Shown here one piece after another: positions 25,637 through 28,693 of a DNA stretch of 64,000 nucleotides. Source of the DNA: an uncultured Alphaproteobacteria bacterium (lineage in GTDB: Bacteria > Pseudomonadota > Alphaproteobacteria > RF32 > CAG-239); contig CALXZL010000002.1 in the NCBI GenBank assembly GCA_944393215.1, positions 141,226 to 205,225 of the forward strand, written 5' to 3'. Both the position numbers and the translations under genes were made by a program. Below the pieces are notes generated by a model, which was not told the DNA's origin, ran no database searches, and saw nothing but the letters and a program-made list of their open reading frames with translations. Every line of letters starts with the position of its first letter. Position 1 is the stretch's first letter.

Positions 25637-26164
25637 ATGACTGTTTTCAAAAAGATATTTATAATACTGACCGGTATAACGGTTTTAAGTTCATGCCAAA
25701 GCTCTCCGCAACCGAGCGTTATTCCGGCAATCCAGAAACCCGTATTGGCAACTCACAATCTACCGATTATAGGAGAAGTAGAGCCAATATATTTCCCCCC
25801 CATGAAAACCCCCGTCTCTGCCCGCATAGATACCGGAGCTGAGCAATCTTCTCTGGATGCCGACAACATTAAATATTTTGAAAGAGACGGAGAAAAATGG
25901 ATATCTTTTGATCTCATTAATAGAGAAAGCGGAGAAAGATATAATTTTAAAAAAGAGATAGAAAGACACACCAACATTAAAAGGATTCATCTCACGGAAA
26001 AAAGACCGGTTGTAAAAATGGATGTCAAATTCGGAGATGAAACATTTACCGCCAATTTTTCTTTAGCAAAAAGAGACAAATTTGAATATCAAGCCTTAAT
26101 CGGGCGCAACATTTTAACAGGACGTGCAATAGTCGATACTTCAATAGCCAACACCTTGCACTAA
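25637..26164 (+). CDS. Putative ATP-dependent zinc protease (retropepsin-like, DUF785/Zn_protease family) lipoprotein
   Basis: It has a lipoprotein signal (LSSCQ) and an RIDTGAEQS aspartyl-protease-like motif. It is the first gene of a three-gene operon with the 7TM-transglutaminase and RimK-like genes. Confidence 0.65.
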   Translation: MTVFKKIFIILTGITVLSSCQSSPQPSVIPAIQKPVLATHNLPIIGEVEPIYFPPMKTPVSARIDTGAEQSSLDADNIKYFERDGEKWISFDLINRESGERYNFKKEIERHTNIKRIHLTEKRPVVKMDVKFGDETFTANFSLAKRDKFEYQALIGRNILTGRAIVDTSIANTLH

Positions 26165-26187
26165 CAAAACATTAAAGGTCAAAAATA

Positions 26188-27726
26188 ATGCTAAAAAGGT
26201 TTTTTACCACACGACGTGTACTGTTTTTTTTACTCTTAATATCCATATGTTTTGCCGGCTACAGTATTTATTATAAAATTAAATATTGGGGTTTTAGCTT
26301 TTCACCCAAGCAAGTATCAGATGTCTGGACCATAGAAGCCCATGTCAGCTTCAAGCCGACGGGAGATCCCATAAAAGTAACATTAACCACACCTTCTGAA
26401 AATAATAATTTTAAGATTTTAGAACAAGATGTCGTCGCAGAGGGTTATAAAACCAAGAAAATTAGCGGAGAGACCAACAAGCTGATATTAACCTCTCCAG
26501 CCAAAGAAAAAAATCAAGATATATATTATCGCGTTATGCTTTTTGACAACAAAGAAGCCAAAGGGAAAACAAAAGCACCGGCACCATCGGCTCCCCAACC
26601 TCCGTTTTATGATGAACAAACATTAGCCACGGCGCAAAATATTTTAAAATCTGCTCAAAAAATGCCCGGAGACGAGGTTCAACAAATCATCCACTTATTC
26701 AACCAGCCCACGCCGGATGCCAATGTTTTAGCTTTTCGACCGTTAAAGAAAAACACCAAAGATACCATAGAAAGCATCCGCAATTTATTGGCACTAAAAA
26801 ACATTCCCAGCCGCACCTCCAGAGGGATAAAACTGGTAGAAGACCGCAAATCATTTTCGGCAGACTTAATGCTGGAAGCCTATATCAGCGGAAAATGGAA
26901 AACCTATAACATTAAAGACGGCAGCATAGGCGTTCCGTCAGACTTCATCTTATTTCAACGCGGAGGAGATTCTCTGCTGGATGTTGAAGGAGGAGAAGAT
27001 TCCACCATCAAATTTTCGGTTATCAAGTCGGTAACATCCTCCATCAATTTAGCCGGTAAAAGAGCCGACATTGCCAAGCAAAAAAGTTGGTTTGACTACT
27101 CCATTTATAACCTACCGGTAGCCGAGCAAAATGTGCTGAAATGGTTGATGATTTTCCCGTTAGGAATATTAATCACGGTTTTGTTGCGCAACATAGTCGG
27201 TATTAAAACTATGGGAACATTTACTCCGATGTTGCTTGCCATGTCTTTGGTCAAAACCGGATTAGTGGCAGGATTAATCAGTTTTGGCTTGATTATGGTC
27301 ATTGGTTTATCCATGCGCGCCTTACTTTCAAAGCTCAACTTATTATTAGTGCCAAGAATCGCCGCGGTAGTGATTTTTGTGATTTTAATCATGCAAACCT
27401 TCACCATATTAGGCTACAGATTCAAATTGGATATGATATCTGCGGCAGCCTTTTTCCCAATTATCATCATGGCATGGATTATTGAAAGAGCCTCAATCAC
27501 ATGGGAAGAAGACGGCGCCGTAAACGCCTGTGAAGAGATAATAAACAGCTTGATAGCTGCACTGATTACATATTTTGTTATCAACAATGAGATAATAAGA
27601 CACGTGATGTATGCCTTTAATGAACTAAATCTGGTCATTTTATTCATAGTGATGTTGCTTGGTACATACACCGGATATCGTTTGACCGAGTTGAGAAGAT
27701 TTTCCCCGATTGCCGAAAGGGATTAA
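26188..27726 (+). CDS. Inactive transglutaminase-like domain fused to a C-terminal 7-TM domain
   Basis: It has an N-terminal TM helix, a soluble domain of about 280 aa, then seven hydrophobic helices (LMIFPLGILITVLL ... IVMLLGTYTGY). The gene order matches the ATP-grasp/zinc-protease/7TM operons described by computational analyses. Confidence 0.65.
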   Translation: MLKRFFTTRRVLFFLLLISICFAGYSIYYKIKYWGFSFSPKQVSDVWTIEAHVSFKPTGDPIKVTLTTPSENNNFKILEQDVVAEGYKTKKISGETNKLILTSPAKEKNQDIYYRVMLFDNKEAKGKTKAPAPSAPQPPFYDEQTLATAQNILKSAQKMPGDEVQQIIHLFNQPTPDANVLAFRPLKKNTKDTIESIRNLLALKNIPSRTSRGIKLVEDRKSFSADLMLEAYISGKWKTYNIKDGSIGVPSDFILFQRGGDSLLDVEGGEDSTIKFSVIKSVTSSINLAGKRADIAKQKSWFDYSIYNLPVAEQNVLKWLMIFPLGILITVLLRNIVGIKTMGTFTPMLLAMSLVKTGLVAGLISFGLIMVIGLSMRALLSKLNLLLVPRIAAVVIFVILIMQTFTILGYRFKLDMISAAAFFPIIIMAWIIERASITWEEDGAVNACEEIINSLIAALITYFVINNEIIRHVMYAFNELNLVILFIVMLLGTYTGYRLTELRRFSPIAERD

Positions 27727-28693
27727 GATGTTTTTCAAAAGCTTTTTTTCATCTTTTGCATCTCCGTCAAGTTTAAGGAAAGCCGGTGTTTTGGGCATGA
27801 ACCGCCGCAATTTTAAATTCATCAGCAAATATAATGACCGAAGATTATATCCGCTGGTAGATGACAAAGTTCAAACCAAAACCTTGGCACAACGGCACGG
27901 CATCACCACCCCGCACCTGATTGGCGTGATTGAACACCAATATGAGGTAAAAGACTTACTCAAAATCATTGGCGCAAATAAAGACTTTGTGATTAAACCG
28001 GCACATGGTTCGGGCGGCAAAGGCGTGTTGGTCATCAAGTCTTTCAGTGAAGATTGCTTTGTCAAAGCTTCGGGCGAAACCTTGACATTTCATGATGTAT
28101 ATAAACACATTTCCAACATTTTGAGCGGCTTATACAGCTTGGGCGGACAATATGACGTTGCCGTCATTGAGGAGCTGGTACATTTCAGCAATATATTCAA
28201 AGATTACAGCTATCAAGGAATTCCCGATGTCAGGATCATTGTCTATAAAGGCTATCCGGCGATGGCTATGATGCGGCTTGCCACCAAAGCCTCCGGCGGC
28301 AGAGCTAACCTGCACCAAGGAGCAGTCGGTGTGGGCTTAGACATCAGCAAAGGCACGGCGTTAAAAGCTGTGATGAGCAATCTGCCGATTGAATTTCATC
28401 CGGATACGGAAGCCAAATTGAGTGAAATTTCCGTTCCCTACTGGCGGGAACATTTGTTGATTGGAGCCAAAGCCTATGAGATGACCGGGCTGGGCTATTT
28501 GGGTGCCGATATTGTGCTTGATGCCGAGAAAGGACCGATGATGCTGGAGTTAAACGCTCGTCCCGGCTTGGCTATACAAATTGCCAACGGCTTGGGTATT
28601 GAAGGCGTCTTGAAGCGCATTGGGCATTATTATCCCAAAGATTTATCCCCGGAAGAACGTGTCGATTTTGTTTTAAATTTTGGTAAGAAATAG
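27710..28693 (+). CDS. RimK-like ATP-grasp amidoligase (alpha-L-glutamate ligase-like)
   Basis: ATP-grasp motifs are present: FVIKPAHGSGGKGV and ELNARPGLAIQIANG. The start overlaps the end of the 7TM gene by 17 bp. Confidence 0.8.
   Translation: MPKGIKMFFKSFFSSFASPSSLRKAGVLGMNRRNFKFISKYNDRRLYPLVDDKVQTKTLAQRHGITTPHLIGVIEHQYEVKDLLKIIGANKDFVIKPAHGSGGKGVLVIKSFSEDCFVKASGETLTFHDVYKHISNILSGLYSLGGQYDVAVIEELVHFSNIFKDYSYQGIPDVRIIVYKGYPAMAMMRLATKASGGRANLHQGAVGVGLDISKGTALKAVMSNLPIEFHPDTEAKLSEISVPYWREHLLIGAKAYEMTGLGYLGADIVLDAEKGPMMLELNARPGLAIQIANGLGIEGVLKRIGHYYPKDLSPEERVDFVLNFGKK

Follow-up and report, generated by a model that had tools for sequence, protein, structure and literature searches.

A probable divergent rloABC operon in an uncultured gut alphaproteobacterium and comparative support for a coupled membrane protein and ATP-grasp ligase

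The window analyzed here is a 64,000-nucleotide (nt) stretch of the genome of an uncultured gut alphaproteobacterium (assembly GCA_944393215.1, contig CALXZL010000002.1, positions 141,226 to 205,225), and the coordinates below refer to it unless another sequence is named. It represents core chromosome, with rpoD, dnaG, gyrA, uvrA, and dsbD present. Three genes in it, judged by their order and protein families, very probably form a divergent alphaproteobacterial rloABC operon, around which the GC content is similar to that of the neighboring DNA:

25637-26164, + strand: rloA, an open reading frame (ORF) of 175 amino acids (aa) for a lipoprotein-type secreted retropepsin-like aspartic endopeptidase (PF05618)
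26188-27726, + strand: rloB, an ORF of 512 aa for a predicted inner-membrane protein (Transglut_i_TM and 7TM_transglut)
27728-28693, + strand: rloC, 321 aa from the conserved ATG, for a predicted cytoplasmic ATP-grasp amidoligase (TIGR02291)

A previous sequence-only reading of the window had proposed three linked genes at this place. The same-strand ORFs at 25637-26164 and 26188-27726, together with a third ending at 28693, confirmed the linkage; the spacers are 23 nt between rloA and rloB and 1 nt between rloB and rloC. The domain assignments made at that time also held in searches with hidden Markov models, in which PF05618, Transglut_i_TM with 7TM_transglut, ATPgrasp_ST, and TIGR02291 were all matched.

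This gene arrangement was reportedly predicted by comparative genomics in 2009, and its naming and its genetic and partly structural characterization followed in 2025, so that the locus cannot count as a discovery in its own right. Lormand et al. (mBio, 2025; PMC12239564) described an operon rloA-rloB-rloC in Pseudomonas aeruginosa, plus two extra RloA paralogues. The P. aeruginosa RloA proteins carry signal peptides and are retropepsin-like aspartic proteases with a dimeric structure; they cut reporters with 8 or 10 consecutive glutamates and not those with 6 or fewer; both activity and complementation were lost in the D48A, R114A, and R137A variants (PMC12239564). Triple rloA1-3 mutants did not grow in salt-free medium and showed shape, biofilm, and β-lactam defects, of which deletion of rloB or rloC rescued the osmotic one fully and the others partially (PMC12239564). 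According to the same study, P. aeruginosa has no genome-encoded periplasmic poly-glutamate proteins, and the substrates weighed by the authors were post-translationally polyglutamylated proteins or free poly-α-glutamate, with peptidoglycan homeostasis also considered (PMC12239564). In a Shewanella transposon screen, disruption of a gene for an “inactive transglutaminase fused to 7TM” led to hyper-vesiculation (PMC12096838), which is an independent envelope phenotype of an RloB-like gene. The NCBIfam entries RloA1-3, RloB (“osmotic stress tolerance membrane protein”), and RimB pointed to the work of Lormand et al. Thus, the description of the system as uncharacterized in the sequence-only reading is out of date: rloABC has been characterized by genetics and RloA, in addition, by crystal structures and enzyme assays (PMC12239564), which leaves only the biochemistry of RloB and RloC. 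No later paper on the biochemistry of RloB or RloC was found in a literature search.

Comparison of the window with the rloABC operons of Pseudomonas (P. aeruginosa and P. fluorescens) demonstrated the same three genes in identical order on one strand. In both, RloA combines PF05618, the D-T-G-A signature, a signal peptide, and a substrate channel lined with basic residues; RloB consists of an inactive transglutaminase-like domain and a seven-transmembrane (7TM) module, and RloC is an ATP-grasp ligase of TIGR02291. The host is different, since an uncultured gut alphaproteobacterium stands against Gammaproteobacteria only in PMC12239564, where neither Alphaproteobacteria nor lipoprotein forms of RloA are mentioned. 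Further differences from Pseudomonas are that the window RloA is a lipoprotein without the disulfide pair and that a cyclophilin gene follows rloC. In addition, the NCBIfam bit scores were all below the cut-offs for RloA3 (95 against 210), RloA2 (74 against 250), RloA1 (60 against 280), and RloB (271 against 900). These are narrow, Pseudomonas-centered equivalog or exception models; the window proteins are thus distant homologs rather than equivalogs as defined by NCBI.

We also compared the window with two gammaproteobacterial loci, in Aeromonas caviae (L087) and on Legionella adelaidensis plasmid 5 (L088). Both have the A-B-C order, with genes abutting or overlapping by 4 bp. The window RloB is approximately 31–34% identical to the RloB proteins of these two comparators, the Pseudomonas sequence not having been compared directly. 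The Aeromonas RloA has 262 aa with a long coiled-coil-like linker, and the Legionella RloA as annotated has 152 aa and no signal peptide, unlike the window protein. The Aeromonas sequence, NZ_AP026896.1, carries a complete, unannotated rloABC operon. It is listed in PLSDB as “Aeromonas caviae plasmid pKAM479_3,” has a length of 4.94 Mb with 18 listed features, and looks like a mislabeled chromosome.

The closest relatives of the operon were found in 80 loci with RloB 59–90% identical to that of the window, all from metagenome-assembled genomes of uncultured gut Alphaproteobacteria. These were labeled CAG:495, “Azospirillum sp. 51_20,” Candidatus Scatocola, or Rhodospirillales, and their gut hosts were human, chicken, deer, and mouse; the exact RloB sequence of the window was found on human-gut metagenome contigs. 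All ORFs of 40 aa or more lying up to about 5 kb from rloB were clustered across 81 loci. The A-B-C order was kept in 79–81 of the 81, far beyond chance, and the recurrent genes were rloA (80 loci), rloB (81), rloC (79), and a gene for a cyclophilin-type peptidyl-prolyl isomerase (PPIase; 77), the other recurrent clusters being shadow ORFs that overlap these four. The sequence-only reading had suggested looking for a conserved small substrate ORF nearby, and this clustering revealed none. Poly-acidic runs were found in only two of all window ORFs, in GyrA (49974-52817), which has an acidic tail, and in a protein of 95 aa (29590-29877); neither was judged credible as a substrate.

RloA matched PF05618 (“Zn_protease,” RimB-like in newer Pfam) with an E-value of 8.9e-28. 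Its best NCBIfam matches were RloA3, RloA2, and RloA1, followed by RimB, all below cut-off. The closest PDB entries were 9G59, 9G58, and 2PMA (E about 1e-11), of which 9G58 and 9G59 are the RloA crystal structures of Lormand et al. (PMC12239564). The retropepsin signature is D65-T-G-A in the window protein, and DTGA was present in all 80 complete sequences. The “zinc protease” of the sequence-only reading therefore reflects a legacy Pfam name; with its invariant D-T-G-A and its matches to 9G58 and 9G59, RloA is an aspartic protease. The idea that the protease is a lipoprotein was well founded: the N-terminus comprises the n-region MTVFKK, a hydrophobic core, and the lipobox L17-S-S-C20 of a lipoprotein-type signal peptide. 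On inspection, nearly all of the approximately 80 relatives have [A/G/S]-Cys around position 19-25, and the strict lipobox pattern was matched by 50 of 81.

The lipobox C20 is the sole cysteine of the window RloA, and most members of the clade have no cysteine in the mature domain; the column of the first Pseudomonas RloA cysteine is a conserved lysine or arginine in the gut alphaproteobacterial clade. The disulfide formed by the conserved cysteine pair of the periplasmic Pseudomonas orthologs (PMC12239564) is therefore absent here. Across 80 RloA sequences, those of Aeromonas and Legionella among them, four basic residues show little or no variation: R63, which precedes D65 by two positions, R123, R146, and R157. 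They align with the poly-glutamate-binding channel residues of P. aeruginosa RloA (K46, R114, and R137), as read through the alignments to 9G58 and 9G59 and not from PA14 RloA directly. Since the Aeromonas RloA is also a lipoprotein (L-G-G-C), lipid anchoring is not confined to the gut alphaproteobacterial clade. Comparison of these proteins shows the disulfide to be apparently dispensable, with lipid anchoring as a seemingly common alternative.

The start of rloC required correction. The sequence-only reading had described a 17-bp overlap between rloB and the ligase gene, which arises only with the longest ORF, starting at TTG 27710, and disappears with the conserved start at ATG 27728. At the junction, the rloB stop TAA (27724-27726) is followed by one base and the ATG at 27728 (TAAgATG), with AAAGGGA 6 nt upstream. 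An equivalent ATG was always present in about 80 relatives, at -16 to +16 nt from the rloB stop, and the protein read from it shares the N-terminal motif F-x-SP-x-x-L-x-x-x-G-[VI]-[LM]-GMN-x-RN. Many of these loci have a stop codon in the same frame just before the ATG, which excludes TTG 27710 as a general start. The Aeromonas caviae RloC also has 321 aa and begins 3 nt past the rloB stop. Taken together, the conserved ATG, the N-terminal motif, and the Aeromonas protein place rloC at 27728-28693. The two genes, though non-overlapping, are still tightly coupled, judging from this junction. Public metagenome gene calls use an ATG or TTG as the start, at 27791 or 27797 (300 or 298 aa), approximately 70 nt too far downstream; on the evidence of the conserved N-terminal segment, which is lost in them, these starts are wrong.

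With regard to its identity, RloC matched Pfam ATPgrasp_ST (E 1.9e-88) and, less closely, the Pfam RimK family (5.7e-10). It scored 424 bits against NCBIfam TIGR02291, “alpha-L-glutamate ligase-like,” and so passed the curated cut-off of 314, whereas it failed both the RimK family TIGR00768 (43.6 bits, cut-off 143.4) and the S6-glutamate ligase equivalog NF007764 (30.9 bits, cut-off 331). The nearest solved structures are RimK α-L-glutamate ligases, at distant similarity (E 3e-6). The catalytic set of K90, G96/97/99, E148, D167, R169, N194, H196, D261, E274, and N276 was at least 97% conserved in an alignment that included a 7TM–ATP-grasp fusion protein from Halobacterium. With the full ATP-grasp catalytic set kept, RloC is presumably an active ligase.

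RloB matched Transglut_i_TM (E 3.5e-26) and 7TM_transglut (E 3e-85). Its family comprises 1,704 clusters at 50% identity for E ≤ 1e-3 and 380 for E ≤ 1e-30. The AlphaFold2 model begins with a transmembrane helix, continues with a periplasmic domain rich in beta structure, and closes with a helical bundle, with a predicted local distance difference test (pLDDT) score of 75.7 and a predicted template modeling (pTM) score of 0.52. The predicted topology is N-terminus inside, one transmembrane helix, the periplasmic domain, seven transmembrane helices, and C-terminus inside. The periplasmic domain has a transglutaminase/LapG-like fold. No cysteine occurs across residues 22-447 of the window protein, and none is invariant in the family; without a cysteine in this domain, and hence without a Cys-His-Asp triad, an active transglutaminase or cysteine protease is excluded. 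The residues R334, G338, T341, G343, F345, P347, R390, F423-P424, R434, E441, G443, and L499-x-E501-x-x-R504-F505 are invariant from Alphaproteobacteria through Gammaproteobacteria to the archaeal homolog. Two motifs predicted to be cytoplasmic are highly conserved, namely W-E-E-D-G in a loop of the 7TM module and R-L-x-E-L-x-R-F at the C-terminus. No transporter fold was detected for the 7TM module.

The archaeal homolog is encoded by an unannotated 584-aa fusion ORF on the Halobacterium sp. DL1 plasmid CP007061.1 (about 105.7–107.4 kb; L089 3803-5557, + strand). It joins 7TM_transglut (51-243) and ATPgrasp_ST (286-557) in one polypeptide. It has the 7TM module and the RloC-type ligase in common with the window system, with the same conserved motifs, but it is archaeal, a single protein, and devoid of the transglutaminase-like domain. 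The fusion ORF adjoins transposase genes, and no RloA-like protease gene was seen beside it among the listed ORFs of at least 100 aa. As a Rosetta-stone fusion, it supports a direct coupling of RloB and RloC. Together with the 1-nt rloB-rloC junction and the predicted topology, it would locate the ligase where the 7TM bundle meets the cytoplasm, beside the WEEDG loop and the invariant C-terminal RLxELxRF.

The limits of the transcription unit were derived in silico from the following neighboring features:

25482-25521, + strand: intrinsic terminator of the gene upstream of rloA, a hairpin followed by a U-run
28757-29371, + strand: gene for the cyclophilin-type PPIase (204 aa; Pro_isomerase E 5e-44) with a Lys-rich N-terminal extension
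29393-29416, + strand: intrinsic terminator 3' of the PPIase gene, found by terminator scan and RNA folding

The upstream hairpin has a folding energy (ΔG) of -22.5 kcal/mol (z -6.3), and none of 200 shuffled sequences was equally stable. It marks the 5' boundary of the rlo transcription unit, and the promoter must lie within about 25530-25636. The downstream terminator (ΔG -15.4, z -3.6) is the predicted 3' end. The 63-nt spacer between rloC and the PPIase gene is unstructured (z -1.3), and neither the terminator scan nor RNA folding found a terminator in it. With terminators on both sides and none between rloC and the PPIase gene, the in silico unit is rloA-rloB-rloC-ppi.

In 77 of 81 loci the PPIase gene comes after rloC; the median gap is 63 bp, and it is no longer than 150 bp in 72 of 82 loci. 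Unrelated same-strand genes (by eye Nudix-like, flavodoxin/azoreductase-like, and HD-domain) are inserted between the two genes in 10 loci, and this makes an obligatory four-gene operon less likely. An adjacent PPIase gene is also absent next to rlo in Aeromonas and Legionella. The N-terminal extension of the PPIase, approximately 55 aa long, contains TKKL-like repeats and 16 Lys or Arg among its first 50 residues and lacks a signal peptide; both the extension and the position after rloC are conserved in the gut alphaproteobacterial clade. We regard the PPIase as a conserved neighbor that, from its position, is probably co-transcribed; its membership of the Rlo system is uncertain. The presence of a polycationic, Lys-rich tail beside a presumed polyanion synthase is suggestive.

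Several other genes near the operon were noted. The two ORFs directly upstream (24381-24644 and 24653-25465, + strand; 87 aa and 264–270 aa) have no Pfam or NCBIfam match and occur in the closest relatives only (28–78% identity), and the strong terminator described above separates them from rloA. The 95-aa protein encoded just past the PPIase terminator (29590-29877, + strand), likewise present in the closest relatives only, is strongly acidic, has a coiled-coil-like look, and ends in SEFDNED. Beyond it, two small P-loop kinase-like genes (AAA_18/AAA_33/KTI12-like; 29978-30484, + strand, and 30470-31000, - strand) are convergent, with 3' ends overlapping by 15 bp. Efflux genes flank the rlo region, beside which they lie only in the closest relatives; they belong to a MacAB-type ATP-binding cassette system (MacB permease, ATPase, and MacA-like adaptor) and to an AcrAB-type resistance-nodulation-division pump:

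21063-24180 and 31058-35440, - strand: flanking efflux regions

An OprB-family carbohydrate porin and a 323-aa protein without a Pfam match are encoded upstream of rloA in many relatives (in L013, at 2993-4267, + strand, and 4324-5295, - strand, with equivalents in 54 and 29 loci, respectively); both are absent from the window and were judged unrelated. The 490-aa ORF at 19051-20523 (+ strand) has no Pfam match at E ≤ 1e-5, and the same is found on the identical metagenome contigs. At the start of the window, a low-GC stretch (215-9251; 0.32–0.35) ends at a tRNA-Met gene (9175-9251, - strand). It contains two GmrSD_N proteins (DUF262-type, type IV restriction-like; 215-2464 and 2494-4338, - strand), a 340-aa protein without a Pfam match (5606-6628), and a UvrD-like helicase (6612-9068), and it looks like a defense island integrated beside tRNA-Met.

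Two known systems provide a frame for the function of RloABC. In Gram-positive bacteria, PgsBCA or CapBCA together with the depolymerase PgdS or CapD combines a ligase on the cytoplasmic face, membrane export, and extracytoplasmic cutting of a glutamate polymer; this poly-γ-glutamate system has osmoprotective and envelope roles. PgsB is a Mur-ligase-type enzyme that forms a gamma linkage, whereas Rlo has an ATP-grasp ligase for which an alpha linkage is presumed. No Pgs homologs were found, as RloC matched ATP-grasp families only and RloB the two transglutaminase/7TM families only in Pfam and NCBIfam. The cytoplasmic RimK/RimB pair makes and trims poly-α-L-glutamate; RimK makes the free polymer, and RimB stimulates this (PMC11957791). 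The Rim module is similar to Rlo in that a relative of the ATP-grasp α-L-glutamate ligases is paired with a retropepsin-like protease that cuts poly-glutamate. It differs in being wholly cytoplasmic, without a membrane partner and with S6 as its target, whereas the window Rlo has an exported protease and an obligatory 7TM protein. RloC stays below the RimK-family and S6-ligase equivalog thresholds, and the module here includes a membrane component and a protease with a lipoprotein signal peptide. Within the 64 kb of the window, no RimK/RimB or RloA paralogues were found.

The core of the sequence-only reading stands: a secreted retropepsin-like protease, a 7TM/inactive-transglutaminase membrane protein, and a RimK-like ATP-grasp ligase are linked, and they probably make or handle a poly-glutamate-like product bound for the outside of the cytoplasm. 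Its zinc protease, gene overlap, and uncharacterized status do not stand. The full course of events that we favor, in which RloC polymerizes, RloB delivers, and RloA trims, is a tentative proposal, about as likely as not as an overall explanation and somewhat less likely than not to be right in every step. Cytoplasmic RloC, as a RimK-related enzyme, would use ATP to form α-linked oligo- or poly-glutamate, as a free chain or attached to an acceptor with a carboxylate. Such an activity is suggested by its conserved catalytic residues, by RimK as the nearest structures, and by the free poly-α-L-glutamate that RimK makes (PMC11957791). RloC would be docked on the cytoplasmic face of RloB, whose 7TM module, with its three invariant arginines, may transfer the anionic product to the periplasmic side or present it there. 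The transglutaminase-like domain on that side, having no cysteine, would bind the product without cross-linking it. The archaeal fusion, the 1-nt rloB-rloC spacer, the invariant R334, R390, R434, and E441 with RLxE..RF, and the cysteine-less periplasmic domain are consistent with this arrangement.

On the periplasmic side, a lipid-tethered RloA dimer would cut long glutamate runs and so limit the amount or length of the product. This agrees with the invariant DTGA, with the invariant R63, R123, R146, and R157, and with the cleavage of at least 8 glutamates by P. aeruginosa RloA and its loss in R114A and R137A (PMC12239564). Poly-glutamate cutting, known for the Pseudomonas ortholog, can be inferred for the window RloA from the conservation of its catalytic residues and of the basic residues in its channel. 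If trimming fails, the product of RloB and RloC would build up and damage the envelope, with hypo-osmotic lethality, shape defects, and β-lactam sensitivity as the outcome. The genetics behind this last step are those of P. aeruginosa only, in which the lethality of the rloA1-3 deletion was rescued by deletion of rloB or rloC; the hyper-vesiculation of Shewanella RloB-like mutants (PMC12096838) points in the same direction. An excess of fixed periplasmic polyanion would raise the osmotic and Donnan pressure in the periplasm and would explain both the hypo-osmotic lethality and its suppression by loss of the synthase or the membrane partner. A physiological role in periplasmic or envelope polyanion homeostasis is speculation.

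Some points weigh against this interpretation. In no organism has a product of RloC been identified, and the name of PF14397, “sugar-transfer associated,” leaves room for a glycan as the acceptor in place of a glutamate chain. The scores of RloA and RloB are far under NCBI's Pseudomonas-centered cut-offs (95 vs. 210 and 271 vs. 900), and the window RloA, by its sequence, has no equivalent of the disulfide of the Pseudomonas enzymes. The transfer of function across 30–35% identity is an assumption, and the RloB model is of moderate confidence only (pLDDT 75.7, pTM 0.52), and the topology is a deduction.

One rival explanation is that RloC ligates an amino acid or short peptide to the carboxylate of a lipid-linked or periplasm-bound envelope precursor, e.g., a uronic acid, a muropeptide, or a periplasmic glucan, which RloB flips or positions and from which RloA removes the peptide. 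The best Pfam family of RloC, “Sugar-transfer associated ATP-grasp,” would suit such a reaction, as would the cell shape, β-lactam, and biofilm phenotypes of P. aeruginosa, for which the authors discuss peptidoglycan homeostasis (PMC12239564), and the vesiculation changes of the Shewanella mutant (PMC12096838). However, no glycosyltransferase or cell-wall gene is conserved beside the operon in the 81 loci, the more specific NCBIfam family of RloC is the RimK-related “alpha-L-glutamate ligase-like,” and the long glutamate runs required by RloA are unlike a short, stem-peptide-like substrate; we consider this explanation rather improbable. A slightly lower probability is given to a sensor model. 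In it, RloB would be a 7TM receptor that detects a peptide ligand through its periplasmic transglutaminase-like domain and controls RloC allosterically, RloA would do no more than destroy this ligand, and what RloC makes would be retained in the cytoplasm, where it could be a glutamate sink or modify a cytoplasmic protein. An extracytoplasmic binding domain followed by 7TM is a receptor-like architecture, no transporter fold was detected for the module, the archaeal ATP-grasp fusion suits regulation equally well as export, and the epistasis of rloB or rloC deletion over rloA deletion is compatible with over-activation. Nevertheless, the supposed sensor domain is missing altogether from the archaeal fusion, and three invariant membrane-embedded arginines suit an anion path better. 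The specificity of RloA for at least 8 glutamates, in an organism encoding no periplasmic poly-glutamate proteins, also indicates a post-translational acidic polymer that reaches the periplasm.

Much less probable is a self-modification, in which RloC would glutamylate RloB at its invariant cytoplasmic W-E-E-D-G loop or C-terminal tail and thereby gate a channel activity of RloB. Other ATP-grasp enzymes, the TTLLs, glutamylate internal glutamate side chains, and WEEDG and RLxELxRF are highly conserved, predicted to be cytoplasmic, and near the ligase position in the archaeal fusion. However, direct evidence for it is nil, and since a periplasmic RloA cannot reach a cytoplasmic mark, the three-gene logic and the epistasis would be left unexplained. 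Finally, the weak similarity to RimK structures (E 3e-6), the RimK Pfam match (5.7e-10), and the homology of RloA to RimB could suggest a canonical RimK/RimB module for S6 glutamylation beside an unrelated membrane protein, an outcome the sequence-only reading had itself allowed for. This has effectively been refuted. RloC fails NF007764 (31 vs. 331) and TIGR00768 (44 vs. 143) and passes TIGR02291; the lipoprotein signal peptide means that the protease is not in the compartment of the ribosome; and rloB separates the two genes in every locus and, in the archaeon, forms a single protein with the ligase. In addition, rimB deletion had no genetic interaction with rloA mutants in P. aeruginosa (PMC12239564).

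The chief value of the locus is thus the comparative support that it brings for an RloB-RloC machine, and not a new system. The sequence evidence for one such machine, brought together here, consists of the archaeal fusion, the invariance of the arginines, and the motifs conserved on the cytoplasmic side. The Rlo system proves to be conserved, beyond Gammaproteobacteria, across a large clade of uncultured Alphaproteobacteria of animal and human guts, and the start codon of its ligase gene, which automatic callers truncate, has been corrected. In P. aeruginosa, Rlo affects β-lactam sensitivity, biofilm, and osmotic survival and is therefore of clinical relevance, and what RloC makes, and whether RloB exports it, can be addressed by experiment. 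A further possibility, which we hold to be doubtful, is that RloB and RloC form an unrecognized template-independent polypeptide synthase-exporter. If so, Gram-negative bacteria and some archaea would possess a synthase-exporter type whose ATP-grasp ligase sits on an arginine-lined 7TM module or forms one protein with it. Poly-α-glutamate would then be extruded into the periplasm as an osmotically active polyanion, with RloA as the governor of its length and abundance, and in the gut alphaproteobacterial clade the co-transcribed cyclophilin with the Lys-rich tail would add a fourth component peculiar to that clade, bound to the polyanion or to the machinery.

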